64,000 nucleotides of DNA from Chiloscyllium plagiosum (Eukaryota): positions 13,328,543-13,392,542 of the forward strand of contig NC_057749.1 of assembly GCF_004010195.1 (NCBI RefSeq). Reading direction: 5' to 3'. Both the position numbers and the translations under genes were made by a program. Of this stretch, positions 6,281 through 57,909 are shown in pieces. Every line of letters starts with the position of its first letter. Within the stretch, counting starts at the first letter, position 1. A model generated the notes under the pieces. The model saw only the letters and a program-made list of their open reading frames with translations, ran no database searches and was not told the DNA's origin.

Positions 6281-6734
6281 TGAATATCAAGGGGGAAATG
6301 TTTAGATTCTCTCACAATGGAATGTTCTCTCATTGCCTGACACTTGTTACTTTTACAAGTCTTTTGTAAGTATCTAAGGAAAATGCCAATGGGGAAAGAG
6401 AGAATCTAAGTGATATTGCCTTGTGATAAATGCCTACAATGCACCTTAGGGAGTTAAGTAAGCACACACACATGTTCTTATGTAACCATTATTGGCAAAT
6501 GCCAAAATGAAAAGTCCTACAGAGGAACAGATGATACCTTCACTCTTCTGAACCAGGTCTGATGCCAAACAAATTATTTGGTTCTGTATTTCTAGAAACA
6601 TCCAGAGAACCACGTTCCTCTGGTGGATCTATCGGGTGCATAATAAATTTAACTGGGATGCCTGTGCACAGGAAATAGCCGTACAGGCACAATGAGCAAA
6701 CTACAGTAAGTAGTCACTGACAACAGATGAAGCA

Positions 6735-8450
6735 TTCGTATATTTCCACTTCCAACGCGGGTAACCGAATTGAGCATTAATGAAACAGGTTTAGATGATT
6801 TAATTCTTTACGTGGATTAATACCGCCGAGATAACGGGGATACTTTGCCCCCCCCCCCCCCCCATACAAAACGGACGAAATCTTATAATCTGCCGTCCTT
6901 CCAGCGTGTATTGATTAAAAATAAACCCTTGCAACAGCCCATATACAGAGGCATATAAATACGCTCAGACCGATTCCACTTTAATTAGAAGACGAGGATT
7001 TAATCATCGCCAACAAAACGAGCGTGAAGAACATCGTCGCTTCTATAATAGGAGCTGTCTCAGGTTTCTGAGCACGTTCCTGCACGGCGGAGAGCTTTCC
7101 TGGAAATTGGCGGATTCAGCACGCTGGACAGCTCCCGTGTTAATTGCCCAGTGTCTTTCCCCCGCTGAGAGGAAACCTCTCTCTCCGTTTGGTTGCGGTG
7201 GGGGTTGGGAGCAGAGGTGGTTTGTGTGTATGTGTGCATTATTGTCAAGTATTTACCCCCCCCACACACACACATACACACACACACTGTTATCTAGTGC
7301 GTGCATGTGCCTGTGTGTGTGTGTGTGTAGCTGTTAAAACCTGCGCATGGTTTTGTTTGGGTCTTTTCAGCCGATCGTTCCAAACACTCCGCTGGTGATG
7401 ACGCTAGCATTTTTATTCCGCTCCTTGTTCCTGAGCAAGAGCAGCTTTAGTCTGGGTAGAAGCCAAATCCACTAAAGGAGAGAGAGAGAGAGCGTGAGAC
7501 AAGAAGACTTCCATGAAACAACCTGAACCCCGTGCGAGATCAGCGAGAAAGCCCCAGCACTCCCCCCTCTCTCCGTGAGGAGACACGCTCGCTGGCTTTC
7601 CAGGACGTGACTTGCAGAAGGTAACGATGCAATTTCTAACGATCCATCCTTTTACACGTAGAGAGACAGAGGAGGAGGGGGGGGGGGGTGGATTAAATAG
7701 ATAACAGCCTATTTCTCGAGTCGCTTGTGAAAAAAAAATGCAGTGTTCCAAATGTACATTATATAACTCCTTACTTCTGAGTCAATGCAAGTAACCGCGA
7801 GGGAAGGGTTGAAGAGGACTGGGAGAACAGTCGTGTTTGCATTTTCAAACGGGAAGATGAAGTGCAGCGCCTCACGACCCGTGTTTAAATGTTTATGTAT
7901 TGTGCAGGTGTCTACATGTGTGTGTTTATCAAGAACAGGGAAAACCATCCAGGCCTCGAAACTTACAAAGCACCCAGAGACACAATAAGGATTTCAATGT
8001 ACCAACAATATTTACATGTTTTTTAAGTGGCCAGGGCAGCGGTTGCTGAGGCGCTGTTACCAGGCGGTAGAAAGCGGGAGCCATGAAATTTCTGAAAACT
8101 GGTTGAGATTACAGGCGTGACTCGACCTCGAGGGAGCAGTGCAATCTTTAAACAGGAATTCATAAATATTCAGGGGAAATCCGTGTGAGGAAACGGTTTC
8201 TATTTTGCTCGTAGATATATTTATTTGAGGTGAACGGGGTGGGGGGGGGGCGGCACTCAGGATGAATTCCTTTTGATGATTACCCCGTTTTAACTTAGTG
8301 GGGCCTACTGTACATCTTTTAGAAAAACCAATTCGACATCAATAATCCCATATTCATCAACACGGTCAGGAATAATCTCTTCCGGAATGTCAGCGAAGGC
8401 TGTGCCCGGTTATAATGTGGGAGGGGAACTCTCTCCAAAGTGGTCAAAAG
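6735..8450. promoter_or_regulatory. CpG-rich island / putative promoter
   Basis: Free of interspersed repeats, with visibly many more CpGs than the flanks; TATA-like CATATAAATA at about 6952, STAT-type TTCCTGGAA at about 7097, TGACG half-site at about 7399, CA/GT/GA microsatellites. Confidence 0.65.
7060..7620 (+). other. Putative non-coding first exon of an unidentified gene (start uncertain)
   Basis: Lies in the CpG island and ends at AAG|GTAACG (7620/7621); contains short ORF 7513-7578. Confidence 0.4.
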
Positions 8451-8509
8451 CAACCAAAGTGGTCAAAAGAAATGACTAAATTGCGTTGTGTAGGTACAGA
8501 GTGACCGTC

Positions 8510-8865
8510 TGGTTAGAAACATAGAAAATGGGTGCAACAAAGGGCCTTCGACCCTTCATTCAATATGATCATGCAATTTCAGTATCCCACCCCTGCTTTC
8601 TCCCCACACCCCTTGAAACCTTTACCTGCAAGGGCCGTGTTCCAGCTCCCTCTTGAATATAACTAACCAACTTGTCCCATAGCTTCCAGTGGGAGAGGGT
8701 TCCACAGGTTCACAACTCTCCCAGTGAAGAACTTCTTCCTCACCTCAGTCCTGAATGGCTTATCCCTTATTCTTAGACTGTGACCCCTGGTTCTGGACTT
8801 CCCCAACATTGGGAACAGTCTTCACATATCTCACCTGTCCTGTTCCATCAGGATTTTATATATTT
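8510..8865 (-). mobile_element. CR1 LINE 3' fragment
   Basis: TTCCACAGGTTCACAACTCTC...GAAGAACTTCTTCCTCACCTC...CTGGTTCTGGACTTCCCC; TAGAAACATAGAAA tail. Confidence 0.85.
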
Positions 8866-10229
8866 AATAGTACACTGTACATATGCGGTAATCTAATACT
8901 TGCTGTTTTAGGGACAAGGTTTTGAACCCTATCAGGGCAGATGGTGAAATTCAAATTCAATTTTTAAAAATTGAGTTAAAAGACTCATTGTAGCCATTAT
9001 CGATCATCATGTATACCCATCTGTTCACTAGTTCCTTTCAGGGAAGGATATCTGCCCTCTTTACCTGGTCTGACCTACATGTCAGTCTAGACCTATTGCA
9101 AAGTGGTTGACTCTTAAGCACCCTTTGACATAGTCCCAGGTTCACACAATGATCATAGGCAACCAGGAATAAGCAACGATTTCAGGACCAACCAGTGACA
9201 CCCACCTCCCATGAACAAACAATAATAAGTTGGATGCTGGTAAAGTTTGACATTATTTAACATTAACTGTTATGTACTAGGTCAGACTCTTTCTCCAACC
9301 CACCTTCCCTTGTTCCTCTCTCTCACTCCTTCCCCTCCTTATTTCTGTTCGCATTTGTCTCTTCCCCGCTCTCTACCGCTCCCTTTCTCTTTGGCTATTT
9401 CCACGATTTCACTGCTTAGATAATTTCAGGCAAAGCAATGGTTTTACCCTAATAAACAACATTAATTAATTAATTAATGGCAGTAGCAAGTAATATAGTG
9501 ACTGGTTAAATGTCTGTGGGCACAGGATGATTAGTGTCTGAGAGCAGTTCGCTGTTCCACAGACACTTTTATATGTGTAGTTTACTGATTTACACGCAGT
9601 TACATGGTAATGAAAATGTTGTACATTCTTTCCATTCCTCACCTCCTTTGCCCTTCACTTGGTGGTCATGCCTTCAGTTACCTGGGCTCCAGGCATGAAA
9701 TTCCCTCTCTAACTGTCTCCAAACCCTCACACTTTTAAGATTTTACTCAAAACCATTTGTCATAGCATCTTTTTCATTGACACCCTCAGTTGTGGCCTGA
9801 CTACATTTTGGTAAATACCTCAGAATTCATTGGTACATCAAAGGTGTTATCTGAATGTAAGTAATTGGAGTTGGTTGGCAGCAACATATGAAACTGCCTG
9901 ATTGTGCACACACAGGAGTAGTGTTCATTTGAAGTTTCCTGCAATTCCCCTTCAACATCCACCTGAAATCCTGCTGCCATGCTATTCCCTTTCTCCTCAG
10001 TTGAAGATTGAATCTGGGCAATAGCAGTGCATCAGCACACAACAGAGGCAGTCTAGATCATAGGCTCTGGAGTGGGATTCAAATCTATAACCTGTTGTTT
10101 AACAAACACTGGTGTCATCATTAAATAAAGTGATCCGATCTTTGCACCCACTGCTAAGCCCATTTTTTTTAAATGCACTTTAGTGGCATGTTACCCACTC
10201 CTAATTCCAATTTAAATAATTATTATGTT

Positions 10230-10345
10230 TGATTTCTGTCATTGATATTGGTGCCTTGAGATAGGGCAACTTATAAAACTTTTCACTGTATTTTTAATGT
10301 AAAAGTACGCATGATAATAAATGTCTATTCTATTCTATTTCTGTT
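10230..10345 (+). mobile_element. Rex1/Babar-like 3' tail fragment
   Basis: CTTTTCACTGTA...CATGATAATAAA followed by (CTATT)n, matching the tail at 38400-38446. Confidence 0.6.
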
Positions 10346-10839
10346 CTGTTGAGCCAAGAAGTTTGTTAGGCCATTTTAGAGGGTAGTTAAGAATCAATTT
10401 TTAGGTTTAGATTTAGATTTTATTGTTACATGTACTGCTATGGGTTTGTAGTCACATGCAGCCCAGTCTGCATAAGAATGGCAGATTTCCTTTACACAAG
10501 GGCATTAATGTATCAAATGGGTTTGTGAACAACAATCAACTATAGTCTCCATGGTTACCATCACTCAGACTAGCTTCCAATTCCCAACCTTTATTCATTT
10601 GAAGTTTACCATCAGCAGGTGTGGACCCAAAGCATTAGCCTGGGCTATATAGATTATTAACCCAGTGATATTACCAATACACCACATACTGCCCAACCCC
10701 AGCTGCTGTCACATGGTTGGATGTGGAGTTGTACCTGTTGGTTTTCATTTACTCACAGTTGGATAAATATGGCACTTCAATTTCCGATTTTCTCCTGAAC
10801 ACAATACTGGGCAGTACAGTCAGGTGGTAACAAACTGCT

Positions 10840-10930
10840 ATCGAGAGTGTGGTGCTCGAAAAGCACAGCAGGTCAGGCAGCATCCGAAGAGCAGGAGAAT
10901 CGACGTTTCAGGCATAAGCCGAACATCAGG
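10840..10930 (-). mobile_element. Penelope-derived terminal fragment with mutated hammerhead core
   Basis: Minus strand reads CCTGATGTTCGGCTTATGCCTGAAACGTCGATTCTCCTGCTC. Confidence 0.75.
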
Positions 10931-11380
10931 CATATGCCCTTTGTCAGCCCCTCAACAACAAACTGCTGTAAACCTCAGTCATCAGAAAGTTATTCACTGG
11001 TACCTTCCCTTTGTCATTTATGTAGCTTCTTCCACTGTGTGAATCTAAATAACTGACAGGCTATCTGTTTTGAATTTCTGCTCAAAAAAATTACAATGCA
11101 ATTTGCAGATTCTGTTAAAACCCTGCATAACTAAATAAGGATATTTTCTTAATCTGTCATGATATATAAGGGGCCTTATTTACGTCAGTGCAAAATCCTT
11201 GTTTAAAACCTCATGACAAGACGAAGTTTCACTTGTTCAATCATTCAAAGGTAACCGGTCAGTATGTGCTATGATTAGCAATGAGGCTTATTTTTTTGAG
11301 ATTCAGAGTTGTTTAAGAAATGCAGTACAGCTGTCAGATAATAATTTAATGCAGTCAATTATCATTTTTGATTTCACTGC

Positions 11381-11394
11381 ACATCAGGGGGCAG
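11381..11394 (+). promoter_or_regulatory. CTCF-like motif
   Basis: ACATCAGGGGGCAG matches 12 of 14 positions of CCASYAGRKGGCRS. Confidence 0.4.
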
Positions 11395-12463
11395 TGAAAT
11401 TATCATCACTGTGCAATAAATAAAAGGCATTTTGCAGATAGGTTGAACACGCATGCTGGAAAGGAACTGCACAAAGAATGCAAAATCCAAAAAAGGTTTT
11501 TCCACTGTATCATCTAACTCCTTTTTTTAAACTAAACATTAATTTAGGATATATTTTATGACTACAAACTTCTGTTGCTTTGTCCACTGGAGGATAGATA
11601 GACACGAGGTAGAAAGGGATACAGGGATATGCCAATAGGTTTAAGTTAAAGGGGAAGGCAGCAACAGTGCCAGCATAAGCCTTTGGGCTGAATGGCCTGT
11701 CCTTATGCTGAGGGCTCTTTGTCATGTTGGAAAATTGATCTGTACTTAACAATGAAATTGGTGGAAAAGTCCAAGTCACCAGAATTATGACAGTATCGAA
11801 AAAAACTGTTTCACCCATTGTGTCTGCACCCGCTCTCAAATGAACGTTTCATTTAGTGTCATTCTCTGACCTTTCTCCTGTAACCCTTGAACATTGTTCA
11901 TTTTCAGTTAAGAGTCCAATTCCCTTTTGAAAGCATCGGTTGAACCTGCCTCTATTCGGCCTAACTCATCCATGCCAACCAGGTTTCCTAAACTGAACTA
12001 ATACCATTTGCCTGTATTTGGCCCATAACTCTCCAAACCTTTCCTATCCATTTACTTATCCAAATGATTTTTAGATGTTGTAATTGTACTCGCCTTTACC
12101 ATTTCCTCTGGCAGCTTATTCCATATACACTATCCTGTGTTTGAAAAAGATGCCCCTCAGGTCCCTTTTAAACCTTTCCCCTCTCACTCTAAACATATGC
12201 CGTCTGGTTTTGGACCCCTCTACCCTGGGGAAAAGACCTTGGCTATTGACTTTATCTATGCCCTCATGATTATATAAACCTCTATAAGGCCACCCCTCAG
12301 CCTCCCACACTCCAGGGAAAACAGTCCCAGCCTAACCAACCTCTCCTTATAACTCAAACCCTCCAGTCTCGGTAACATCCATGTAAATCTTTTTTGCAGT
12401 TTAATAACATTCTTCCTGTAGCAGGACAAGCACAATTGTACACAGTACTCTAGATGTGGCCTT

Positions 12464-12942
12464 GGTAAAAACAAGGACTGCAGATGCTGGAAACAAGATT
12501 CTAGATTAGAGTGGTGCTGGAAAAGCACAGCAGTTCAGGCAGCATCTAAGGAGCAGGAAAATCAATGTTTCGGGCAAAAGCCCGATTGAAAGGGTTCAGA
12601 AAAGATTTACAAGGATGTTGCCAGGGTTGGAGGATTTGAGCTACAGGGAGAGCTGCCAAAGGATGTGGTGGAGGCTGATACAATTGCAACATTTAAGAGG
12701 CATTTGGATGATTATATGAATAGGAAGGGTTTGGAGGGATATGGGCCGGGTGCTGGCAGCTGGGACTAGATTGGGTTGGGATATCTGGTCGGCATGGACA
12801 GGTTGGACCGAAGGGTCTGTTTCCATGCTGTACATCGCTATGACTCTATGACTCTAAGGGCTTTTGCCCGAAACGTTGATGTTCCTGCTCTTCAGATGCT
12901 GCCTGAACTGCTGTGCTTTTCCAGCACCACTCTAATCCAGAA
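12464..12942. mobile_element. Penelope-derived fold-back insert with 15-bp TSD and a CR1 fragment in its loop
   Basis: TCTAGATGTGGCCTT at 12449-12463 and 12943-12957; inverted arms at about 12500-12583 and 12858-12943. Confidence 0.85.
12585..12856 (+). mobile_element. Internally deleted CR1 3' fragment
   Basis: GTTCAGAAAAGATTTACAAGGATGTTGCC...GGGAGAG joined directly to CTGCCAAAGGATGTGGTGGAGG; CTATGACTCTATGACTCT tail. Confidence 0.9.
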
Positions 12943-13609
12943 TCTAGATGTGGCCTTACCAATTTCTTGTACCTCCTCAAATTAGCATCTTAACTCCAGT
13001 ACTCAATTCTCTGACTGATGAAGGCAAGCATGCCAAACACCTTGATTTTTTCATTTGTTCATGTGATGTTGGTGTAGCTGGCCAAAGTTTGCGTGGGAAT
13101 TGTACTTGTGAAGCCTCTTGGGAATTTATCAATGTGTTGAACATTCTAAGTAAATACTAGTAAGGTCAGAACAGGTAAGGGAATACATTTTCTTCCCTGA
13201 CAGCTATAGCTGAGAGTCCCTGTTAAAGAGGGTGTTTCTCTGTCGGGATCACTTTGAACAAAGGTTCGTTAGCAGGACATGTTTTAAAGTGCACTATCTC
13301 ACTGCTGAGATCATGACTAATGGATCATGTGGCTGTCTGTAGTTTTGAGAAGTAGGTTGATGAGAAATTGAGTAATCAGCACCAATGTGATGTCATTGTT
13401 ATTTTGTGATGAATAGTTCTGGTTAGTTTTACAAATATTCTAGAGATGACAAAATCTCATTACCCTTTATGGCTTTTTCCCACCGTGCCCAAATCCACCC
13501 AGCAATTGTGTCAAATCCAATACCTTCAGAGATCTAACTTTTCAGTTAAATTCCATCTCCAGAGAAGGCCTGTTAGTAAAGGTTAAGCACAGGGTTGAGT
13601 TTATCCTTT

Positions 13610-14163
13610 GCATAAGGCACTGGTCAAATGCATTCAGAATACTGTGAGCAATTTTGGGCCCTGTATCTAAGGATGTGCTAGCCTTGGAGGGAGCCCAGAG
13701 CAGGTTCACAAGAATGATCCCAAGGATGAAGGGCTGGGCAATGAGGAATGGTTGAGGACTCTGGGTCTGTACTGGATGGAGTTTAGAAGGATGAGGGGGG
13801 GATCTCATTGAAACTTACAGAATACTGAGAGGCTTGGACAGAGTGGACGTGGAGAAGATGTTTCCACCACTAGGAGAGACTAGGATTCCACTAGGGGACA
13901 GCTTCAGAGTGATCCTTTAGAACTGAGATGAGGAGGAATTTCTTCAACCAGAGGGTAGTGAATCTGTCAAATTCATTGTAACAGAAGGCTGTGGTGGCAA
14001 GTCACTGAGTGTATTTAAGACAGAAGTAGATATACTTTTAATGGGTGAGGGATTCAAAGGTTATGGGAAGAGGACAGGAGAATGAGGTTGAGAGACATGA
14101 TCGAACAGCAGACCAAACTGAATGGGCCAAATGGCTTAATTGTGCTCCTAATTCTTATTGGTC
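13610..14163 (+). mobile_element. CR1 LINE 3' fragment
   Basis: Decayed HSEYCEQFWALYLR, RRFTRMIPRMKG, EFRRMRGDLIETYRIL, EMRRNFF. Confidence 0.9.
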
Positions 14164-14499
14164 TTTCCCAGAGTGAATACCCTCAATGCCAAAATAGCTC
14201 TGGAGCATGCCTGTGATGTCAGCTGGCTGTGAGAGGCTTCAGGAAGCAGGTGCTGATGTGTTCTTGTCAAGGGGACCGGGAGATCAGGACTACTGAAGCA
14301 GAGCTTCTATCCTAGGGGTACCTGTGGAGGAGATCCCCTTGGTCGATTGTGACAGCAGGTCAGGGGAACTTGTTTAGTACAACACAATGGTTTCAAATAT
14401 CAACTGGGCCACTCAAGATGAATGCAGAATTGCAGGTGGACACCAATTATCTTTTTTTAGTTTTTCCAAGTGAAGCCAGTTCTTTTGGCCCTTTTAATT

Positions 14500-14850
14500 T
14501 CAAAGATATGGAGATTGCGGGCCAGGCCAGCAGTTATTGGTTATCTCTAACTGCCCTTAGGAAGGGGGTGGCAACCTGCCTTCACGAATCCTTGCACTCC
14601 ATCTGGCAGGGACACCTACAGTGCAGGAAGAAAGGGAATTCCAGGATTTTGATCCAGCACCAGTGATGGGACAATGGATATAATTCCAAGTCTGAATGGT
14701 GAGTGGGTTGAAGGTGAGCTCACAACTGGCGATATTCGAATGCAACTGCTGCCCTTGTCTTTCTAGGTTGTAGAGATCATGTGTTTGAAAGGTGTTGTCA
14801 AAGGAGATTTGGCAAGCTGTTACTTGTAGATGTACCACTGTGCATCAGGG
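14500..14850 (-). mobile_element. Second CR1-group LINE 3' fragment
   Basis: GGGAATTCCAGGATTTTGATCCAGCACCAGTG...TTCCAAGTC, homologous to 52320-52700. Confidence 0.75.
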
Positions 14851-14984
14851 ACTGAAGTTTTAATTTGCGCTTTGTCTTGATTCTTCATTCCCCTAACTGA
14901 GATCAGCAAACTCAGTACTGCACTCAATGGTGCCACGACCATCAAACTATTGGGACATGTTACTCTCTTGATAATCAATAAGGC

Positions 14985-15163
14985 AAAGGTAAAGTTGTAA
15001 TTGGGAGAGATGACTGGTGATGGTTTAATCCAAGGGTCGTCACACCTCAGGCAAGGGGAGAGGTTGGGTCGACAATACTTCATGGTAACCTCAGCGAGTG
15101 CAGGAATTGAACCCATGCTGTTGACGTCACTCTACATTGCAAATCAGCCATCCAGCCAACTGA
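14985..15163 (-). mobile_element. tRNA-derived SINE (related copy about 21400-21545 +)
   Basis: Minus strand A-box TCAGTTGG and B-box GGGTTCAATTCC, then GCTGAGGTTACCATGAAG. Confidence 0.7.
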
Positions 15164-15427
15164 TTCTCTTTTTATACTAGAAGGTGTCACTGTATCTATC
15201 AGAAAAGCATAATCTTTTATAATTAAAGCTACCAAATTAATAGATTATTGATATGATCACGTTATCAATAATTAGGCTGTCAGCACAGAGTACAACAATC
15301 TTGCATCTGTGTAACATTTCAGGACTCATGACCACTCAAACTGTTTTGCAGTCAATTATGTGCTTTTAATATCGTCACCATTGTAATGTGGAATAAGTAT
15401 GGCATTTTTATTAATTGAGTGTGTATT

Positions 15428-15770
15428 TAGAGTCATACAGCACAGAAACAGACCCTTCGGTCCAACTCATCTGTGCCACCCAGACATCCCAGTCTGATCT
15501 AGTCACATTTGCCAGCATTTGGTCCATATCCCTCTATTTGTGTACCCATCCAGATGCCTTTTAAATGTAGTAGTTGTACCTGCCTCCACCACTTCCTCTG
15601 GCAGTTCATTATATACACGCACCACTCTTTGTGTGGAAAGGATTCCCTTCAGAACCTTTTAAAATCTTTCCCATCTCATCTTAAACTTATGCCCTCTAGT
15701 TTTGGACTCCCCACCCTAGGACAAACACCTTGGTTGTTCACCCTCTCCATGCCCCTCATGATTTTATACT
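15428..15770 (-). mobile_element. CR1/HER1 3' fragment
   Basis: TAGAGTCATA tail, AAACAGACCCTTCGGTCC, ATGCCCCTCATGATTTTATA. Confidence 0.9.
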
Positions 15771-17269
15771 TTGGAATAAGATGGTCAATAAGTAAATTTT
15801 TATATTGCTTTACATAAAATGTTACTTGCTCATTTGTTAAGTATCAGAGATGTGCAGCTGAAATTTGTTGCAATTTTGAGAATTTGAATAAGTCAGGTAC
15901 AAAAGTGAGATGCCAACTATGTTTATGAAGACAAAGTAACATAGTCCAAAGCTTCATGCAGCACTACTCACTTACGGAACATCTGTTAAATTTCCTCCTC
16001 CTTTCAGAAAGGAACAAGTCATTCCACTTCCCGACAGCTGTACATAAGATCTTGAACCTGGGCCACCTTCACCTTCAAATTATACATGATGATATAATTT
16101 AGCAATTTTAAACAATTAATTCTAAAATGGTGGACTGAAAGTAACATGGATCTTGCACCTGCTCCTGAGATTCAGGCTTATTTCTGACAGTTATTACATT
16201 TCAATAGTATTGGATTTTTATTTTGATTCATTTTAGTTCAAAGACATTTAGATAAGTACATGAATAAGAAATGTTTGGAGGGATATGGGCCAAGCACAGA
16301 CAGGTGGGTCGAGTTTTTTTTATTCATGGGATGAGGGCATCACTGGCAAGGCCACCATTTATTGCCCATTTCTAACTGGCCAAAGGGCAGTTAAGAGTCA
16401 ACCATATTGCTGTGGATCTGGAGTCACATGTAGGTCGGGCCAGGTAAAGATGCCAGTTTCCTTCTTTAAAGGACATTAGTGAACCATATGGGGTTTTCCA
16501 ACAATTGACAATGGATTCATGGCCATCATCAGATTATTAATTCCAGATGTTTATTGAACTCAAATTCCATCATCTGCTGTTGTCAGGTTTTGAACCCAGC
16601 TCCACAGAACCAATCCTGGGTCTCTGGATTAACTGTCCAGTGATAATACCATTAGGCTATCATCTCCCAAACTTAGTTTGGGATTATGGTGGACTTGTTG
16701 GACTGAAGGGTCTGCTTCCTTGTTATATGACTCTATGACTCTGTTATTCCTTAATACTGATGGCATTTGAGTTAGTCACAGCTTGGAATTGTGGTTGCCA
16801 TTCCTTCACTGTTGCGCAATCAAAATCCTGGAACTCCTGAACAGCATTGTGGGTGTATCTGCAGTAATTCAAGGTGTCCAAGGATGTGTAGGCGAGGTGA
16901 ATTAGCCATGGGAGATGCAAGGTTACAGGGATAGGGTAGGTGGGGTGGCTGTGGATGGGATGCTCTTCGGTGTGGATTCGATGGGTCAAATGGCCTGCTT
17001 CCATATTGTAGGGATTCTATGATTCTCCTCCCTGAAAATTCTGACAGCCTCTTCTAACTGCTTAAGACCCTCAGCTAGGATGAGGATGCCCTAAGCCTCT
17101 CTCGCACCCCTGCCCCCATAAATCATGGGTGGTCAGATAGGAAAACCTAGAAAGCTCTGCTGTCATTTGTGCCCCTCATAATGTGTAAAATTCTGCCCGT
17201 AAGGCTCTGAAGTGACTTCACAGGGTAAACACTGAAAACTTCTACCCTCCCCACCAGAAGTGGAGCAAA

Positions 17270-17990
17270 GAACTCAGTATCAGAGTCTCAGAATAAAGAA
17301 TCCACCATTTTGGACTGAGATGGGGAGAAATAACATTAATCAAAAAGTTATACATCTTTGGAATTCTATATCTCAGTTGGGTGGGAATGCATTGGAAACA
17401 GTTAATAGGAGGTTTACCAGACAAATACCTGGGTTATCTTATTAAGAAGGTCTGTATCCACTGGAGTTTGGAAGAGAAAGAAGTGACCTGATTGAAACAT
17501 GTGGGTTCCTGAGGTGTTTTGACAGAATGGATGTGGATACAATATTTCTACTTACGGAAGAATCGAGAACTAGGGATCACTGCTTGAAAATAAAGGAGGT
17601 CACCATTTAAGACAGAGATGAGGAGAAATTTTAGTTGGTAGGAGGCAAAGTCTTTGAATATTTTGAACGGAGAGTTGGATAGATTCTTGAAAAGGAAGAG
17701 GCGTGTGAAAGTTTATCAGGAATAGGCAGCAACGTGGAATCATCAGATCAGCTGGGATCTTATTGTATGGTGATCCGGCTGAGGAGCTGAGTGGCCTGAT
17801 TCTAATTCACATATTGGTTCGATCATGGGGAAGTTGATGAAAGTTTGGATGATGGGAGGATTAAGCGCTATGCGTGTACTGGTGGAGCTGAGGTAGTAGA
17901 TCAACTATGATCTTTTTGAAGAATGGAGCCGGCTCAAAGGGCCGAATGGCCTATTCCCGCTCCTATTTCTAGGGTTCAGCAGAATTCACT
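17270..17990 (+). mobile_element. Cluster of decayed CR1 3' fragments
   Basis: GGAGTTTGGAAGA...GACCTGATTGAAACA, GAACTAGGGATCAC, GAGATGAGGAGAAATTT, GGCCGAATGGCCTATTCCCGCTCCTA. Confidence 0.8.
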
Positions 17991-19525: not shown

Positions 19526-21060
19526 AAAATAGGCTTTAATAAAATTACATCTCAGTAAAATAGCACAGTGGAAATAATTGTTAGAAGGAAAAGTATCATC
19601 TTGCACTTCTAAAGCACCTTTCACCTCCTTCAGGATGTTCTAAAGTACTTCAAAGCCAGTTAATTATTCTGACCTTTGTCATCATTGTAACATAAGCAGA
19701 GGGCAACTGCTAAGTTGTGAACAGCAATGAGAACTGAGGTAAATTGCCATTCAAATCGTTTTGGTTGTGCAATCTAAAAGATGGATGTTAAACAATTTTT
19801 TAAAGATCTTGAGTTTTCATAGGATCTTTCACAGCCATATGAAGTGTAATCATGACTATAATATTAGAGATGTGGCAGCCAGTATGTGCACAGCAAGATC
19901 CCAAAATCAACAATACAACAAATCCCCCAGATAATCTGCTTCTATGATGAGAGGTCAGTGCACTTCCTACTGAGTCTGGGTGGTGGCAGTGGTTAGCGCA
20001 CTAGGACAGTTCTTTCAATTGTGCATTGAACTGATGGTTGTCTGCTTAGCTCCTGAAATGAGCTTTAAACCAATGACTCTCTGACACTGAGGCCAGGGTA
20101 CTAGCAATTGAGCCAAGCTAAAACATGGTGATTTCATCAGATAAATTATATCTGCTGTCACAATAAGAGCATTTGATTCTTTAGAGTAAATAAGTTAAAA
20201 GTCTAATTTTAAGTTACAAACTTAATTTTATAGTGTGCGTCAAATTAAGCATTTGGTTATTAATATTACAACAGTCATTTTTAAGTTAAAATGTTTATGG
20301 AACTGGATATAAAGATAAAGTTGAAGTACATTTTTTTCAATTTCTACTTTCAATGCCTTAACTTTAGCGTAGGAGAACTGAATGGAAACCCTGTATCAGC
20401 ATTATTTCACACTAGCAAGATTTAATTTCAGCACTGCTGATATTTCCAGATTTGATACAACAGTTAGATGCAGAATTGAATCTTTCTGCTCTGCCACAAT
20501 CTGACTGTAATAATGTGACATTGCTATTTCCTGTACGAACTGTTCTCTGGCCTCTCTGACTGCGACTACCAATTTAGTGGAAATTTAGGAATGATTTTCC
20601 ACTCTGAGACTATGTCCACAAGGAACTGGGCTGAGTGCTCGAACACATTGCTTCAGATCGTTAGCAGCACACAGGCAAGGCTTTCATCCATAAGTCTAAG
20701 CCGGCTTTGAACTCATGTCAAGTGATAAAAAGCTTGAAATGAATTTTAACTCGTCTGCAAATTGCAAAAAACAATGAAGGTGGGAAGGAAATCATTTTCT
20801 AAACATATAAATATTTGCCAGTCAATTTTTTTTAATAGCAGAATGTTTGACAAAGGGATATAACTGTGTAATTTATTGTATTGGTGAGATGTGAACCCAG
20901 ACTGCTAAGCACAGAGGACACAACACCACTAGCACCTACAGATTTCTGGTTTAGGTTTAATTTATCCAGTTCCTGTGGAGAACAAAGAGAAACCAGGATC
21001 TGTCTCTGGTGCCAGTCTATTGCAATCTCAATGTTAAAGAAGTAACTCCCCTGTTCATTT

Positions 21061-21163: not shown

Positions 21164-21192
21164 TCCCCTGTTCATTTACCTGATTGGTATTT

Positions 21193-21390
21193 GTGGACAA
21201 AGTCAGAAGTCACAAGACACCAGGTTATAGTCCTACAGTTCATTTGAAATCACAAGCTTTCAACACCCAGTGAAGGAGCAGCGCTCTGAAAGCTTGTGAT
21301 TTCAAATAAACCTGTTGGACTATAACCTGGTGTGATGTGGCTTCTGACTTTGTCCACCCTAGTCCAACACCAGCACCTTCATACCATGGC
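21193..21390. mobile_element. Second family of fold-back insert with hammerhead-like centre
   Basis: Arms GTGGACAAAGTCAGAAGTCAC...CACAAGCTTTC and GAAAGCTTGTG...CTGACTTTGTCCAC; centre GTGAAGGAGCAGCGCTCTGAAAGCTT; TATTTGTGG repeated at 21188 and 21391; related copy at 23960-24120. Confidence 0.7.
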
Positions 21391-23959: not shown

Positions 23960-24120
23960 TGATGTGGAGGTGCTGGTGTTGGACTGGAGTGGACAAGGTA
24001 AAGTCACACAGCACCAGGTTATAGTCCAACAAGTTTATTTGAAATCACAAGCTTTATGAAGGAGTAGCACTTTCAAATAAACCTGCTGTACTATAACCTG
24101 GTGTCGTGTGACTTCTGATC
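23960..24120. mobile_element. Fold-back insert, same family as 21193-21390
   Basis: CACCAGGTTATAGTCCAACAAGTTTATTTGAAA inverted against TTTCAAATAAACCTGCTGTACTATAACCTGGTG. Confidence 0.75.
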
Positions 24121-25334
24121 TTGAGTATGACATGATTGGGGGACCAAAGACCAAAATGACAATAAAGACCGACCCAGCAAGCAAAGGGGAGCAAACAAAA
24201 GTGATGAAACAGAACCATGCATGACAAGGTAGAGGCAGAGTTTATAATTTAAAGTTGTTGAACTCAACGTTAAGTGTGGAAGACTGTAGGTTGTTGCCCC
24301 TCGTGCTTGCAAAATTGTAAACAATATTAGGCCATGTATGTAATTGACGGCTTATTGATATCTCCCACTTCACAACATCACCCACAGTTCAAATGACCCC
24401 TCTGCATACAGGCCCCATATTCATGTGGAATATCATGTGACATTGCCTGGTATATAATGAACGTTAGATTTATGGTTACCTTTCAGTCTTACAGCTTTAA
24501 TACTACACAAACGGTCCGACTGATAGCCCAGGTAATTTAATAATGTTACATGCTAAGGTACACTGGTTGTTCTATTGCTTTATAACAGGCAGTGACATAA
24601 AATCAGCTATTACTAAAGTTCGGATTATGTGAGTCATGGGACCATAGATTCCTCTATTCTATACCTTGCTATCTGTCATTGGCAAATATAAAACTACCTC
24701 CGCAACTGCTACTTTAGGTAACATTATAAATGATGTTACAGAGGATTACACATTTCATTGTTGAGGGCAATGCAGAAGTTTCCCTGAGCTGGTAATCCAA
24801 GGTCTGTGCTGATTTAGCACAATGTCGGGTAATGTTGTGAAATGAACATTACCATGGGCAAAGATATTCTGTTAGTTTTGTATGACGGAGAAAGCTTACA
24901 ATGGGATGTCTCATTTGACACTGTGTTCAGTAAACCCCTAAAACATTGAGTGGGGAAATGAGGTACCTTCTGCAACAAATGTTACTGGGCAGGTTGATAT
25001 AATGACTTCCACAGTCGGAGACTACACGAGTCACAATAATTCCTCATTTTCTATTTATGAAGCCGTGACTGCGTTGTCTGTGTCCTATGTGCATTGAGTT
25101 GAGTGCTGTCTTTGAGGGAGATTAAAGATAGGGATGTCCATTGCTGGGTCAGTGATGAGCTATTGCTTGTTCCTGCTGCAAAGATCCCATGATCCTGGGG
25201 TAGTGAATGAAATAACTGCAGAGGCTGGTCTCCTGTCACTAAGTCACCCTTTATTTATTTGTGGACAGCACACTGCCTGAGACCAGCCAGCTCACAGTCA
25301 GTCCCTGAAATTAGGAGACTCTCTGAATCCCCTG

Positions 25335-26841
25335 TTTTTTTTTTGTTTTTTTTTTATCTTTTGTGTGTGTGCAGGTATCGGACATAGTGAAAAACAAGAA
25401 GTGTGTAAATCTTTATTCAATTTCCACCACCAGGAAGAAAGGAAACACCGAAGTGGTCAGCGACAAGCAGTGCCCTTCTCAAAGGGCAATGCTGCATGAT
25501 CAAACAGTGAAGGGAAGGGCAGAGATTAAATCAACATAGAATTGGAGAGGGAAATAATACCCTCCGCTATCCCCTGTTTATTATTTTTATTTTTTTTATT
25601 AAACCCCCACACTACCGCCTAACTGCGGTAGCGCTTATTTTTTTCCCAGCACCCATGGTGTGTGTGTGCAGGTGTGAGACACAGTGAGAGACACGAGATG
25701 CATGGATCTTTATTCAGTTTCCACCACCAGGAAGAAAGGAAACACCCGAGTGGCCAGTAACAAGCAGTGCCCTTCACATCAAAGGGCAATGCTGCGTGAT
25801 CAAACAGTGAAGGGTAGGGCAGGGGTTAAATCAAAATAGAATTGGACGGGGAAATAATATCCTCCGCTATCCCCTGTTTATTTTTTTTTTCTTTTTCTTT
25901 TTTTTATTTAATTTCCACCATCAGGAAGAAAAAAAACACCCAAGTGGCCCGTGACAAGCAGTGTCCTTAGGCCCCTGTATATTTTTTTTTAGTAAACCCC
26001 CACACTACCGCCTAACTGCGGTAGTGCTTGTTTTTTCCCCCAGCACCCATGGTGTGTGTGTGTAGGTGTGAGACACAGTGAGAGACACAAAGTGCACGAA
26101 TCTTTATTCAATTTCCACCAACAGGAAGATAGGAAAACACCCGGGTGGCCAGTGACAAGCAGTGCCCTTCACATCAAAGGGCAATGCTGCGTGATCAAAC
26201 AGTGAAGGGGAGGGCAGGGGTTAAATCAAAATAGAATTGGACAGGGAAATAATACCCTCCACTATCCCCTGTTTATTTTTTTTTCTTCCACACTACCACC
26301 TAAGTGCAGTAGTGCTTATTTTATCCCCAGCACCCATGGTGCGTGTGTGCAGGTGTGAGACACAGTGAAAGACACAAAGTGCACCAATCTTTATTCAAAT
26401 TCCTCCACCAGGAAGACAGGAAAACACCCGGGTGGCCAGTGACAAGCAGTGCCCTTCACATCAAAGGGCAATGCTGCGTGATCAAACAGTGAAGGGGAGG
26501 TCAGGGGTTAAATCAAAATAGAATTGGACAGGGAAATAATACCCTCCACTATCCCCTGTTTATTTTTTTTTCTTTTTGCTTTTTTTTCTTTTTTTTTTCT
26601 TCCACACTACCACCTAAGTGCGGTAGTGCTTATTTTATCCCCAGCACCCATGGTGTGTGTGTGCGCAGGTGTGAGACGTGGAAAGACACAAAGTGNNNNN
26701 NNNNNNNNNNNNNNNNNNNNNNNNNNNNNNNNNNNNNNNNNNNNNNNNNNNNNNNNNNNNNNNNNNNNNNNNNNNNNNNNNNNNNNNNNNNNNNNNNNNT
26801 AAATCAAAATAGAATTGGACAGGGAAATAATACCCTCCACT
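25335..26841 (-). repeat. Head-to-tail array of at least 6 poly(A)-tailed retro-units (probably Tx1/L1-clade 3' ends)
   Basis: ATCCCCTGTTTAT or a variant at 25327, 25569, 25869, 25972, 26264, 26551 and 26842; the first six are each followed by a T-run and a homologous unit. Confidence 0.9.
26696..26799. other. Assembly gap (104 N) inside the array
   Basis: Run of N. Confidence 1.
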
Positions 26842-28375
26842 ATCCCCTGTTTATATCTGTCAGCGAGGGCTCCTGGATTGGCTCCGGTTAACAACCCCAA
26901 TCAAGGATTTCATGGTAAATAAGATCCACCTGACTTCAATCACTACAACGGATCCACTTTTTTTTAAAACCATTCACAGGCTGAGGGCATCGCTGGGTAG
27001 GTCAGCAATTATTGCCCGTTCCTATAATTGCCCAGAGGACAGTTAAGTGTCAACATGTTGCTGTGGGTCTGGAGTCACATGTAGGCCAGACCAGGTAAGG
27101 ATGGCAATTTCCTTCCCAAAAGGGCATTAATAAGCCAGATGGGTTTTTTTCTGACAATCAACAAAATATTCATGGTCATCATTAGACTCTTAATTCCAGA
27201 TTTATTTAAAAATTGAATTTAAGTTCCACTATCTGTTGTGGCAGGATTTGAATATGGGTCCCCAGAACAGTTCCTGAGTCTCTGGACTAACAGTCCATCA
27301 ATAATATTACCAGGTCATCACTTCCCCAAATGTAGTGCAGTATAAAAGGGAGGGGAATTATGTCTGATTGTGTGAAGTGCTTGTGAGAATCAGTATAGAA
27401 TGTCTCAGGAAGTGACGTGATGTCACATGATCTTGCTCTTTACTGCAGCCTTATGATAGGATGATACTCCAGTAAGATGTTTCCTAAGTTCATCTTTTTC
27501 CTTTCTTCAGCACAATTACTCTAATAATTTGAATATTACTAAAAAAAATACATTTCTTTAAATTTTTAATATCTATTCAGCTGGACAATTCACAAGAAAT
27601 GTCAATGTAGAAGGAAAGCAACCTTTGTACTAGATTTAGCAGAGTGCAATCTGATTGTTAGAGTTGTTGCCATAGAGAATGTAGCAGTTAATGATGACTG
27701 ACAGTTAACTGTGAAGCTTTGATTAAATTTTAAACCTCTGAATGGTCAAGATATTACCCTGAGAATGAACCACAGATTGGCTATCACATATTTTGTTAAG
27801 TTGAGGCATAGTGTGTGTACGTGTTGTATCTGTCTTCAATGAACACGGTCTGTTTTATTGATACGTGTCATTTGAGATCACAGTGTAGCGTACTTGTATG
27901 ACTAGAAGTTACATATTTCACACAGGTGAGGCTTATCTACTATAGGAGGTCCTGCAGAATAAGTGAGGATCGATTATTGCATTCTTCAATAAGAGGTCTC
28001 CAAGCTGCTTCAATGTCACCCTTCAGTCTGATAGTCGGCCCCAGATAGAATTCTCAAACTATTGGTGAAATATCATAACTTTCAAGCATAATTACTGTAT
28101 ATTATCACAAGGTGTATGAAGTACAATGGAATTTATTTCAAGTATACTAAAATTAAGGGTAGAAGTTAGAAGGGAGGACACAATGCTGGTGCACACATTC
28201 CAATTATATTCCTTACAGCATTATTGCAGACAGATCATTATCTTTGAGCCGTTATAATTACACAAAGGTCAGTTACACTAAAGACTAGCACACTGGTGAA
28301 CTTCAGACTGACTCCAGGCATGGAATTCCTAAAGTTAACCCTTTTACGTGTTGAAATTATAGCATGGAATAATAC

Positions 28376-54052: not shown

Positions 54053-54320
54053 CCTTTTTCCTCGCTCTGCCTGCCTTGCTCCCTCTCTCTGTCTCAGGGT
54101 TTGTTTCTGAGCAGGGACACGCTTGTGTGGAAGGGTCCTGCAGCATTGTTGTAACCTCTCCCCGCTGCTGCTTCACTTCAATGGGATTGACAGAGCGAAC
54201 ACTTGCTTTATCTGCTCAGGAGACTAGGCAGCAGAACACTGCGCAACACCCCCCATGCCCTGCCACCCCCCCCCCCCCACCCATTGTGCCTCCGTATCCC
54301 CACATGTCCCTGCTCCCGCC

Positions 54321-54322
<2 letters not shown>

Positions 54323-54367
<45 letters not shown>
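54323..54367. repeat. Perfect (CA)n microsatellite
   Basis: About 22 CA units. Confidence 0.95.
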
Positions 54368-54369
<2 letters not shown>

Positions 54370-54964
54370 CCATTCCCAAAGCCTCCACCTCCACCTCCAT
54401 TCCCAAAGCCTTCTCTATTTCGCCTACCACAGTGCTCCAGTATTCCCGCAGACTGTGGCAGGACCAGAGACAATGAGTGAGCGTGCCCTTACTCAGTCTG
54501 CATTTTGGACACATTGGAGATGCTCCCACTTTAAACTTAGCGAGGCAGTCTGGGGCCAAATGGACCCTGTGGAGAATCTTCAACTGCAAGGCATGGGTTC
54601 TGTTGCAAATCGAGATCCTTCTTGCATTTTCCCAGATATCCCCCCATACTTCAGAAGAGATCTCAACATCCAACACCCTCTCCCATAACTTAGACAGCCA
54701 TTCAGATTTGTCCGAGAGACCTTCTCCCAGTAGGTGACAAACATTGCTAACAGAAAGCATACCCTCAGGGCTCAGTACCCTCTTCTCCATGTCAGACCTA
54801 TAAAAATCAGTTAGAAATGTGGTCTCTTTTTGTATGAAATTTCTAATTTGAAAAAAAACGGAAGAGGTCCCTACTGGGCAATTGATATCTCCAAGCCAAC
54901 TGGTCAAAGGACATCACTGTGTCCCCTTCAATAAATTACCCAGACAAGGCACACCCTTAGCTGC

Positions 54965-55038
54965 GAGGAGAAAGTGAGGTCTGCAGATGCTGGAGATCAA
55001 AGTTGAAACTTCATTGCTGGAACAGCACAGCAGGTCAG
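54965..55038 (-). mobile_element. Single-arm Penelope-derived insert in L1 ORF2
   Basis: Near-identical to 53851-53922; interrupts the FKL-AAKG frame; no TSD. Confidence 0.85.
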
Positions 55039-57909
55039 CATAGTTTAAACCTCGGGTCCATCATCCCTGGCTAAAAACCCGGCATACCCACTATGGGTGT
55101 CAAAAATGATGTTTTGGCAATATTGCTCTCACTCTGACGCATTGCCCGCCACACCTTGACAGTATTAATAACTATTGGGCTGTGCTAATACTCCTTAACT
55201 ATTCTCATTTTGTCCAAGAACAGCAGGCTAGTAAGGGGGCATCTTGCCTGAGCTGCTTTAATGTCCAACCAAAGTGATTAGGGTCTCCCCATGGCTTAGT
55301 CACTCACGTAGGATAGCAACGGGTTTAATTGATAGTTTTTGATATCTGGGAGGTCCACTCTTCCCAGCGTGTAAGGAAACTGCAGTCGAGTCAGTTTAAT
55401 TAAGGGCCGCTTGCGATAACAGATAAAGGAACTGAACCAGCCGTTCAGTCTCCTAAATATTTGCTTGGTAAAAAGGCTCAGGAAGCATTCACATAGGATA
55501 CAACAGAAGGGGGAGAATGTTCATTTTAATGAGAGCTATCCAACCTAACCAAAATTTCGGAAGCGCCTCCCATCTACGAAGGTCCTCTCGAATAAATTGG
55601 TTTTAAATAGCCGATCTAAGACAGGGGTAATAAATATAATTAAGTAGAGAAAGTCCTCCTGCAACCAGCTAAAGGGAAATCAAGGTTCGCCCTCAGGATC
55701 AGGCAATCTAGGAAGACCATCCGTAGGCATGGCGTCTGATTTCACAAAATTGATCTTATAACCTGAAAAGCCGCCGAATAGATTGATTGCATTGTATCAG
55801 GAGCAGCACTGAAACTGTTGGGTTTGATAAAAAGGCAAGGGCACCATCTGCATACAATGCAATCTTATGTGACTTTGTCCCCACTTCTGGAGCAGATATA
55901 TTGGGATGCCTACATATTGCCTCCGCCAACGTTCGAACAGCAATGTAAAAAGCATGAGGGACAGCCTTGTCGACTGCCCCTACAAATATTGAGACTGCTT
56001 GACCATACACCATTGGTAAGGACCGCAGCAAGAGGGTTACTGTACAAAACCTCCACCTACCTAATGAAGGTTCTTTAAAGTATAAAAAAGATATGGCCAC
56101 TTGACCCGGTCAAATGCCTTTTCTGTGTCTAAAGAGATCACAAATCCTTGTACCGATTACTGTTGACAAACATGGATCATATGAAGTAAGTTCCTGGCAT
56201 TATTCAACGATCTGCAACCTGTTATAAATCCCGTCTGGTCCTCCTTAATGCTGGAGGCCAGTACAGTTTCTAGTCTTAGAGCCAAAGCCTTAGATAGGGC
56301 TTTGAAATCAACATTCAGGAGTGAAATGGGTCTATAGGAAGCACAGTCCTCTGGGGCCTTCCCTTTTTTAAGAATGAGAGAGATGTTCACCTCTCTTAGA
56401 GATGGTGGGAGGAGGCCACGACTACGTGAGTCATTAAACATACTAAGCATCGGCCCTGACGATATAAATTCCTTATAGAACTCACTGGGGAGGCCATCAG
56501 AACCCAGCGCCTTTCCATTCTGGGGCTTCCTCACGGCCTCCTGCACCTCTTGCTCTGACAACGGGGCATTGAGGAAAGATTCTTGTTCAGGTGCCACTCC
56601 CGGAAGGTCCAACTTCTTCAAAAAAGTCTCCATCCTAACCCACCCATCCTCACAACTTTCAGATTAAAACAGTTCAGAGTAAAATTTCTGAAATATTTCA
56701 TTAGTCCTGTTAGAATCATGGGTTAAATTTCCAGTGTCCTCCCTGATCGAGGTAATGGCTAGGGGAGCATTCCTATTCCTGGCAGGATATGCTAAGTACT
56801 TGACCAGCTTATCCCCATGCTCAAACAGCCTTTGGTTTGCAAATGTAAGCTCCCTCTTAGCTGTCTGTGTGAGCATGGAGTTCAGTGTGGACCGAAGTGC
56901 TGTGATGCTCTGCAGTTTATCCAGCGGAAGGCCTGTCAAAGTAAGCCTTTTCAACTACTTTCAGACATGTTTTGAGCAAGTGTTGCTGTTCACCTGCCTG
57001 CCGTTTCTTACGAGCTAAACAGGAAATAACTAACCCCCTAGCATAGGCTTTAGCAGTTTCCCAAAGAATGGGTGGGCTACTGGCCAAGCCTGAATTAATG
57101 TCTTAAAAAGTCCTGAATTCAGTAGACAAGAATTCAATAAACTTACTATCCTGAAGGAGGAAGGGGTCCAATGGCCAATGTCTCGAAATTACCATAGTAT
57201 CCTTATTCTTGACCATTAAATACACTGGGGCATGATCAGAAATAGTGATATTGCCAATTGTGCATGACACCAGATGTGCTGCAGGGGTAAAAAATAAAAT
57301 CAATTCTGGTGTGGCATTTATGTGGATTCAGGAAGAACATGAATTCCTTATCAGTAAGGTGAAGGTGCCTCCAAACATCTACCAATCCCAGTTCAGCACA
57401 CAAATCCCTTAATTGCTTAGATCATGAAAAAGATATCGGAGCGCCTTTGGGCAATCTGTCCACTGTAGGATCTATTAGACAATTGAATTCCCCCCTCCGT
57501 CCCGCCCACGATAATATGCTGTGATGTAAGGTTAACAAGTCTAGAAAGTGCGTCTGTCAAGAACTTACGGGGGTGGGCAGGGGGACAGTAAACATTTAAG
57601 ATCCTGTATTCTTCCCCATGTATCAGAACTTTAAAGATTACAAATCTCCTGTGTGTGTCTTTAATACACTCCAACAAATGGGAGATTCTTTCTAACTAGA
57701 ATGGCCACCCCTCTACTCCTCGTATTGAAAGATGAGAAGTAAATCCTGTCATACCGATTCTGTTGCAGTTTCAAATGCTCTGCAACACCTCGGTGTGTTT
57801 CTTGCAACAAGGCAACATCCAGCCTCTCCCTTCCAAGACTGGAAAGTATCTTTTGTCTCTTGACTGGCGAGTGACTCCCCTTAATGTTCCAGGTGCACCA
57901 CTTGAACAC

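Follow-up and report, generated by a model that had tools for sequence, protein, structure and literature searches.

A stack of six A-tailed retroelement units at the TATA box of an LTR-like repeat in Chiloscyllium plagiosum

Tx1 LINEs that target LTR elements have already been published, namely the crocodilian families Tx1-8_Crp and Tx1-4_AMi, in a study that regarded a family as target-specific when more than 20% of its flanks fell into one repeat type (Kojima 2015, PMC4494074). In R1 arrays, new copies insert into the target site duplication (TSD) that lies 5' of a copy already in place, and where junctions within such arrays were identical, a single event was taken to have been amplified (Stage and Eickbush 2009, PMC2718515). 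We analyzed a stretch of 64,000 nucleotides from C. plagiosum (contig NC_057749.1, positions 13,328,543 to 13,392,542, forward strand; "the window"), and confirmed a genuine array of six A-tailed minus-strand units that lie between seven copies of a short target inside a split LTR-like repeat.

The target is 11-13 nt long and present on either side of every unit. Exact matches to the 13-mer ATCCCCTGTTTAT lie at 25569, 25869, 26264, 26551, and 26842, and a further copy, at 25327, has one mismatch; when up to two mismatches were allowed, nine matches were found in the window as compared with a mean of 2.49 after shuffling (0/100 shuffles reached nine), the remaining three of the nine being two-mismatch matches elsewhere in the window. 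Numbered from the most downstream to the most upstream, the target copies, all on the minus strand, are located at 25327..25339 (copy 1, one mismatch), 25569..25581 (copy 2), 25869..25881 (copy 3), 25972..25982 (copy 4, the 11-nt variant ATATACAGGGG), 26264..26276 (copy 5), 26551..26563 (copy 6), and 26842..26854 (copy 7, ATAAACAGGGGAT). The initial annotation had proposed at least six head-to-tail units with the target regenerated between them, and both statements stand, since target copies separate all units. The last of the six intervals crosses an assembly gap of 104 N (26696..26799, strand not applicable) that may hide further units.

The promoter (5') half of the host repeat (26855..26947, minus strand) starts with TG at 26947 and carries a CCAAT motif at 26881-26877. 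Of all target copies, only the uppermost retains an intact TATAAA (26850..26855, minus strand), which now faces into unit 6; as had been suggested, target and TATAAA overlap, the target beginning at the second letter of the motif. The 3' half (25208..25326, minus strand) is multi-copy, contains an AATAAA at 25259-25254 and ends with CA at 25208. This position is a true repeat edge, at which depth jumps from 7-22 to 6,700-17,800 and from which 257-349 contigs per DNA run exit into unrelated flanks. The features of a solo LTR, that is TG..CA termini, the order CCAAT-TATA-AATAAA and a dispersed repeat with a sharp edge (edge and depth apply to the 3' half only), are thus present. A flanking TSD of 4-6 nt, on the other hand, was not found for any TG in 26900-26999 combined with any CA in 25150-25259; the sequences flanking the two halves are ..CCGT and TTCA.. 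Motifs and read depth are therefore the whole basis for the solo status claimed earlier. An internal region of an LTR retrotransposon was not detected in the window.

All six units share one orientation and end in A tails; in its complete form, a unit is composed of the last ~15 codons of an ORF, a 3' UTR, a hairpin, and the A tail. Units 1, 2, 4, 5, and 6 begin with the same 5' nucleotide, and unit 3 alone differs. Unit 1 (25340..25568), which contig matches also reveal in a second organism (organism B), lacks the hairpin and has its A tail ~50 nt past the AATAAA. Unit 2 (25582..25868) has its stop codon at 25828-25826 and a hairpin at 25634-25609, followed by the end GGGGGTTT and the A tail. 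Unit 3 (25882..25971) is 5'-truncated, with a body of ~60 nt and an A tail that starts at the AATAAA itself. In unit 4 (25983..26263), the stop codon lies at 26223-26221 and the AATAAA at 26108-26103, and the 3' part comprises a hairpin (26026-26001), the GGGGGTTT end, and the A tail. Unit 5 (26277..26550; stop codon 26510-26508, hairpin 26315-26290) is a mosaic with a break near 26418. Unit 6 (26564..26841), which contains the N gap, a hairpin, and a short 3' end (GGAAG, then a long A tail), may consist of pieces of two units. Three types of 3' end exist, exactly as initially described: at the AATAAA (unit 3), ~50 nt past it (unit 1), and after the hairpin (units 2, 4, 5, and 6); the tail sequence is different in each unit.

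LINE fragments are recognized by A-rich 3' tails combined with TSDs, and six A tails with the target flanking every unit are found here; the variable 5' truncation that also marks such fragments is not seen in the array, where all units but unit 3 begin at one position. Folding of three of the four hairpin-bearing units gave z-scores of -3.5 to -5.2 for the terminal hairpin (0/200 shuffles), as opposed to only -2.1 for the whole unit. A SINE head was not apparent, since Rfam returned no match at gathering score (ten weak ones had E values of 0.85-4) and no tRNA is present in the array. With nothing in Rfam, an identity as ribozyme or retrozyme was likewise rejected. The presence of CCAAT and AATAAA raised the possibility that the unit is itself an LTR or a DIRS/Ngaro repeat, a reading rejected because CCAAT and TTTAA fall into the ORF end and stop codon and because the units are A-tailed. 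A sigma-70 promoter scan, a model irrelevant to this host, found nothing.

The data support a derivation of the units from the 3' terminus of a long element that carries an ORF and an A tail. Copies of the family extend beyond the 5' end of the units, a continuation documented at 25855 by 105 RNA reads (agreement 0.91) and at 25858 by 21 contigs. The extension reads RWAPQGVECI, in frame with the ORF end in the window, KQGIAEDIISPSNSILI followed by the stop, such that ~10 further codons are visible; within the window, the ORF-end peptide comprises 17 aa, no open stretch in this frame exceeds 33 aa, and the sequence that precedes the unit in other family copies has no match at up to three mismatches. 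The source is probably an abundant LINE of the L1/Tx1 group, and its ORF end may resemble Tx1 ORF2 ends; members of the Tx1 clade are recognized by a reverse transcriptase and an APE endonuclease that group with Tx1L, Keno, Kibi, and Koshi. RNA reads of the family have mainly one orientation (e.g., 885 vs. 11.5). The lowest bin of the unit 2 body is 40-206 times as deep as the target-proximal LTR bin and 7-15 times as deep as the LTR peak, these values being summed contig depth rather than copy number, with unit tails masked in the read and contig comparison. The family is therefore probably not confined to this LTR, and the original idea of a family dedicated to it is not supported. A decayed, reverse transcriptase-bearing LINE at ~54200-57900 (PF00078, E 3.7e-9) was rejected as the parent because it has no DNA match to the array and the C-terminal peptide of the ORF finds no match in it beyond four residues. 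Exact-pattern scans yielded no locus in metagenome contigs, viral contigs, and prokaryote genomes, collections not expected to contain the host, and no paper on this element was found in the literature covered, which did not extend to subscription papers and Repbase.

Unit 1 is the most diverged full unit, differing by 13.2% from units 2, 4, and 5. Pairwise divergence amounts to 6.8% for units 2 and 4, 6.7% for units 4 and 5 and 10.5% for units 2 and 5, whereas units 5 and 6 differ by two substitutions in 96 positions, with three gaps, in the 3' part and by none in the other 42 positions compared. Divergence thus tracks the physical order of the units; unit 3, at 13-17% from the other units over 60 nt, is more diverged than order predicts. 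Unit 5 is a recombinant of its neighbors, with a unit 4-like 5' half and a unit 6-like 3' half. Between units 4 and 5, the 5' half has 1/133 and the 3' half 15/133 differences (permutation p 0.0076), and with the 5'/3' rates of five other pairs as control, P was 0.002-0.018; this was one of five tests, change was faster in the 3' half of all pairs, and Fisher's test against the 2-5 pair gave p 0.067. Units 1 and 2 share six alleles against units 4 and 5, and there is consequently no single clean tree.

The 5' junction common to five units is rare. In the junction bin (25558-25589, partly masked by 25573-25608), DNA depth is 8-69 times that of single-copy sequence, as compared with 14,000-256,000 for the unit 2 body bins used for comparison, and RNA depth in this partly masked bin is 1.7 vs. 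100-900 in the body. Relative to the reading common in the family, the array junction has three additional letters inserted in frame, and CAGGG at the junction point is common to the family at large and the target. Without a hot spot, the chance that five of six ends coincide is <1e-7. Five of seven hand-tallied differences between array and family are third-position (p 0.045), a value that does not separate the models. As five units share this rare junction and unit 5 is a mosaic, counting six independent insertions, as the initial annotation did for target-primed reverse transcription, is an over-count; the proposed process itself is retained for at least three separate events.

These at least three events follow from the three 3' end types and the truncated unit 3; that at least three units need separate target-primed retrotransposition is supported, and probably there were four or five. 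We consider it fairly probable that target-primed insertions and recombination between units together built the stack. The LINE would nick the bottom strand within the LTR's TATA box, and the freed ...TTTAT-3' end would serve as primer for reverse transcription of the LINE RNA, starting on its A tail. A second cut 11-13 nt away would duplicate the target, so that each insertion would leave a usable site. New copies may have entered mostly at the upstream target copy and pushed older ones downstream, as in R1 arrays. Insertion would account for unit 1, for unit 3, and for one to three of the units that end with the hairpin. Recombination between resident units would then have added at least one more, namely unit 5, via unequal crossover of unit 4 with what is now unit 6. 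Recombination would also be the most economical reason for one 5' junction in five units, to which it may have spread. The agreement of divergence with physical order was counted in favor of this explanation; the three-letter insertion at the junction counts against it, as it fits a native subfamily equally well.

Such a subfamily is the core of an explanation by six independent target-primed insertions, in which the ORF of a sub-lineage natively ends with CAGGGGAT and its 8-nt match to the end of the duplicated target acts as a truncation hot spot, such that five insertions terminate at one and the same letter. We regard it as unlikely. The CAGGG and the in-frame insertion agree with it, as do the different tails of the units, and in the R2 system annealing of as little as 11 bp gives precise junctions (PMC11331408) and microhomology is frequent at truncated junctions (PMC2718515). 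However, the model needs an unseen subfamily, since the coincidence of five ends would otherwise be so improbable; reads show the junction variant rarely, at a level that this array alone could supply, and both the mosaic unit 5 and the odd 3' end common to units 5 and 6 are left unexplained. The shared junction also agrees with an origin by only one or two insertions, with DNA-level tandem duplication, later deletions, and A-tract slippage accounting for the rest. A period of 287 nt with 2.0 copies at 26000-26574 is in line with this, and so are shared minority alleles, at 25795 (C in units 1, 2, 4, and 5, T in 92% of depth) and at 25847 (C in units 2, 4, 5, and 6, G in 96% of depth). Two of the shared alleles, however, sit in CpG sites and may be ancestral states, and units 4 and 5 have family-majority alleles at sites where this is not so for units 1 and 2. 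The missing 55-nt hairpin end rules out unit 1 as parent of the others, unit 3 is bounded on either side by an end of its own that falls at the target, and deletions that all stop exactly at the A tail are hardly to be expected, rendering an origin mainly by duplication improbable.

A fixed 5' end would also be expected of a short non-autonomous derivative whose read-through RNA, consisting of target plus unit, is copied by the LINE protein, with the cDNA annealing via the 13 nt it carries. The intact CCAAT and TATA motifs facing into the stack and the predominance of one orientation among family RNA reads are compatible with such a derivative, and co-transcription with the target has been proposed for SINEU (PMC4494074) and is known for R2 (PMC11331408). 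It is nevertheless very improbable here, because DNA runs rarely contain the junction, RNA coverage of it is thin (in the partly masked bin), and there is no tRNA or Rfam head. RNA polymerase II starts ~30 nt behind the TATA box, and such a start would land inside unit 6. Least probable is an assembly artefact beside the gap. Such an artefact would be in keeping with the interruption of unit 6 by the gap, with the piece following it, 55 nt of which equal units 4 and 5, and with the LTR halves not joined by a TSD. The first junction of the array is, however, present in independent contigs: one from run X1 equals window 24950-25428 with no other letters, one from run X4, a separate study, matches 25258-25428, and one from run X12 (organism B) matches 25191-25410. 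The units differ by 7-13%, far above allelic levels. Doubt is limited to units 5 and 6 and to the connection with the promoter half.

A further reading is conceivable, albeit unlikely: the stack may template itself, in that cDNA primed at the upstream target switches to a resident unit or is made on read-through RNA that includes the target. Nascent L1 cDNA copying nearby DNA has been reported in tumors (bioRxiv 10.1101/2024.08.27.596794), and no paper on stacks built by self-templating was found in the literature covered, again without subscription papers and Repbase. New units would then receive fresh 3' ends and tails and inherit the founder's 5' junction and length cap, the stack would be a polarized, time-ordered record of LINE 3' ends in an LTR TATA box, and the LTR promoter would be directed onto the tails of its parasite.

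The locus contributes a cartilaginous-fish-type case of a retroelement landing in the core promoter of another, an event that could disable LTR promoters and polyadenylation. Because stacks keep several insertion events at one identical site, they can inform about the poorly understood 5' joining step, and they can show how much of an array of "serial insertions" is recombination. An endonuclease with a 13-nt site would, if confirmed, be useful for site-specific gene insertion tools. There is no new principle in the stack, its consequences or its uses.

Having probably arisen partly from repeated insertion and partly from local copying, the stack is a new case of behavior already documented in insects and in other vertebrates. 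For Tx1-8_Crp and Tx1-4_AMi, the section that describes them gives neither a site within the LTR nor stacks (PMC4494074), whereas here the site is the TATA box. SINEU-3/Tx1-Mar in Mariner-N4_AMi likewise consists of short A-tailed units inside another transposon, with tandem copies that sandwich a TSD and were interpreted as sequential insertion; unlike the present units, SINEU-3 is headed by a U2 snRNA sequence, and its target harbors 313 of 347 copies (PMC4494074), while the units described here consist of ORF end and 3' UTR and belong to a family far more abundant than its target. The R1 arrays of Drosophila 28S rDNA also have a TSD, of 14 bp, between copies (PMC2718515); they differ in clade, in their rDNA target and in their long elements, as compared with ~270-nt tails in an LTR. 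Finally, Tx1L of Xenopus laevis resembles the putative site-specific LINE of C. plagiosum in that its site inside another transposon, Tx1D, is specified by the endonuclease (PMC1950540), but there the target is a DNA transposon and the endonuclease was assayed.

The stack occupies the minus strand of a split LTR-like host repeat (25208-26947) and consists of six A-tailed units, from unit 1, the most downstream (25340-25568), to unit 6, the most upstream (26564-26841). The coordinates in the initial annotation proved correct: the 13-mer target ATCCCCTGTTTAT has exact copies at 25569, 25869, 26264, 26551 and 26842, the copy at 25327 carries one mismatch, and an 11-nt variant starts at 25972. When up to two mismatches are allowed, the window contains nine matches where 2.49 would be expected; no shuffle out of 100 gave as many. 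On the minus strand, every unit follows the order target, body, A-rich tail, target; an assembly gap of 104 N (26696-26799) lies within unit 6. Outside the array, TG (26947), CCAAT (26881-26877), TATAAA (26855-26850), AATAAA (25259-25254) and CA (25208) were all located on the minus strand, in the order claimed. As the target begins at the second letter of TATAAA, only its most upstream copy retains the TATA box.

Four of 24 sequencing runs were compared with 24950-25885 (936 bases comprising the left flank, the 3' half of the LTR and units 1 and 2). In three DNA runs, left-flank depth was 7.6, 9.9 and 13, depth rises to 6,700-17,800 at 25206, and 349, 257 and 302 contigs, among the loose ends listed (places where contigs or reads leave the window sequence), depart into unrelated sequence at this edge. 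It follows that the host is a dispersed repeat ending sharply at TG/CA, as expected of an LTR and as observed for its 3' half. To this extent the solo LTR originally claimed holds up; on the other hand, pairing every TG in 26900-26999 with every CA in 25150-25259 revealed no target site duplication of 4-6 nt, which counts against a simple solo LTR. The duplication may have decayed, or two LTR copies may have supplied the halves, through recombination or a join across the gap. The flank beyond the CA end (25196-25211) is an inverted repeat of the LTR's other end (GTAGTGA-TGAA, matching at 11 of 12 letters, of which four lie within the LTR), a match that looks like a terminal inverted repeat extending 8 nt further and may bear on the absent duplication. 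At 25219, the final two letters of a weak consensus of loose ends beyond the CA end are identical across the three DNA runs, which could reflect a fraction of copies leading into internal sequence, e.g., a primer-binding site. In run X12, from organism B, 139 contigs among the loose ends listed match the final 50 nt of the LTR alone, diverging at 25257; a related, more abundant LTR subfamily thus exists, the TATA region of which may differ.

A contig of run X1 matches 24950-25428 without a single other letter, one of run X4, from another study, matches 25258-25428, and one of X12 matches 25191-25410 with three other letters and three gaps. Unit 1 within the host LTR is therefore common to two organisms, and the array is not an artefact, the comparison covering the LTR 3' half and units 1 and 2. 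Organism B differs from the window flank at 7 of 237 letters. Unit 1 is probably old, judging from orthology as suggested by identity and single-copy depth, with 17 letters of unique flank in the B contig. Other repeats also populate the window. The right flank (26972-27300) enters another dispersed repeat, of which the window contains six other, diverged copies; a presumably Penelope-like repeat whose inverted arms are long (44 nt, 89%) is present twice, at 21190-21360 and 23990-24120, and a decayed, near-full ORF2 of an L1-type LINE (reverse transcriptase match PF00078), unrelated to the array, occupies the minus strand at 54200-57900 and is broken near 54960-55030 by another repeat. A tRNA-Gly called by ARAGORN at 20940-21029 is not reported by Rfam and by eye is unlike a canonical tRNA.

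Among the 24 of 1,631 loose ends listed, 105 RNA reads (agreement 0.91) and 21 X1 contigs continue past the unit 5' end into other sequence that translates on the minus strand to RWAPQGVECI, in the same frame as the terminal KQGIAEDIISPSNSILI and stop of unit 2. This rules out a self-contained short element. The in-frame continuation thus shows the end of a longer element, each unit comprising the last ~15 ORF codons, a 3' UTR with AATAAA and an A tail, i.e., a LINE 3' end. We take the ORF end to resemble Tx1 ORF2 ends. In four units there is also a terminal hairpin (of three folded, z -3.5 to -5.2). With the A tails at 25328-25373 and 25573-25608 masked, depth in those bins of the unit 2 body that were compared comes to 14,000-256,000 times the single-copy level. 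The lowest of these bins stands at 40-206 times the LTR bin adjoining the target and at 7-15 times the LTR peak (summed depths, not copy numbers), which argues against confinement of the family to the host LTR. In poly(A) single-cell data, reads of the family are strongly skewed to one orientation (885 versus 11.5 for the deepest bin). If mate 1 reads antisense, this agrees with minus-strand RNA, but an internal A run primed some of these reads, and none is assignable to the array locus.

Target-primed stacking, as initially proposed, is borne out by separate 3' ends, a separate 5' truncation and different tails. All three described types of 3' end were seen: at AATAAA in unit 3, ~50 nt beyond it in unit 1, and beyond the hairpin in units 2, 4, 5 and 6. 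Together with the truncation peculiar to unit 3 and the unlike A tails, they count for separate insertion events, and we consider it improbable that most units are plain duplications. The start of unit 3 (25960-25975) resembles the family's internal hairpin without its loop, so its 5' end may reflect a jump across the hairpin. Substitution levels track the physical order of the units: unit 1 differs by 13.2% from units 2, 4 and 5, the pairs 2-4, 4-5 and 2-5 by 6.8%, 6.7% and 10.5%, and units 5 and 6 at 2 of 96 sites plus three gaps (0 of 42 in the piece beyond the assembly gap). Such a pattern would be expected if new copies entered at the upstream target; unit 3, 13-17% diverged over 60 nt, is out of step. 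By analogy with established target-primed reverse transcription, a nick within the TATA box would release a T-rich 3' end for pairing with the LINE A tail, a second cut 11-13 nt away would duplicate the target, and later insertions would use the duplicate again.

The notion that all six units are independent did not survive, since five share one 5' junction and unit 5 is mosaic. Units 1, 2, 4, 5 and 6 have the identical first letter behind the full 13-nt target (chance under random truncation <1e-7), and this junction would require a step beyond target-primed reverse transcription. Of 133 sites compared in each half, one differs between units 4 and 5 in the 5' half and 15 differ in the 3' half (permutation p 0.0076, for one pair out of five tested). 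The 3' half changes faster in every pair; when the five other pairs supplied the control rates, P was 0.002-0.018, and one Fisher test gave 0.067. Because its 3' part is nearly identical to that of unit 6, including the unusual short end, we read unit 5 most readily as an unequal crossover between units 4 and 6. Six alleles are common to units 1 and 2 against 4 and 5, so the units form no single clean tree.

Why five units have one 5' junction is the point of interest. At exactly this junction, the prevalent family reading has CAGGG in common with the target end; the array junction is three letters longer, in frame. We favor, with some reserve, a junction formed once, aided by this homology, and spread through recombination, with at least three real insertions. 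A sub-lineage natively carrying an 8-nt match to the target and truncated there every time is a rather unlikely alternative; in reads, the shared junction is rare, at 8-69 times single copy for a bin that is masked in part. Similarly doubtful is self-templating, in which new cDNA switches onto a resident unit, or is copied from read-through RNA with the target, and inherits the founder's junction. That read-through RNA itself carried the target along appears less probable still. In R1 and R2, precise junctions arise from cDNA annealing to the upstream target (PMC2718515 and PMC11331408).

The stack is real and well formed, and its kind of behavior is already known. No paper on the array's LINE was found in a literature search outside which most subscription papers lay. 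According to Kojima 2015 (PMC4494074), Tx1-8_Crp and Tx1-4_AMi insert preferentially into LTR retrotransposons; the array likewise sits in an LTR element, its LINE being a candidate member of the Tx1 clade. The same paper describes tandem SINEU-3 copies sandwiching the target site duplication inside a Mariner element, and the array, too, has tandem copies with the target between them inside another transposon. Tx1L, the target of which is Tx1D (PMC1950540), works alike in inserting into another transposon. Tandem R1 arrays grow by insertion into the upstream target (PMC2718515), and the order of divergence among our units would fit this R1-type entry.
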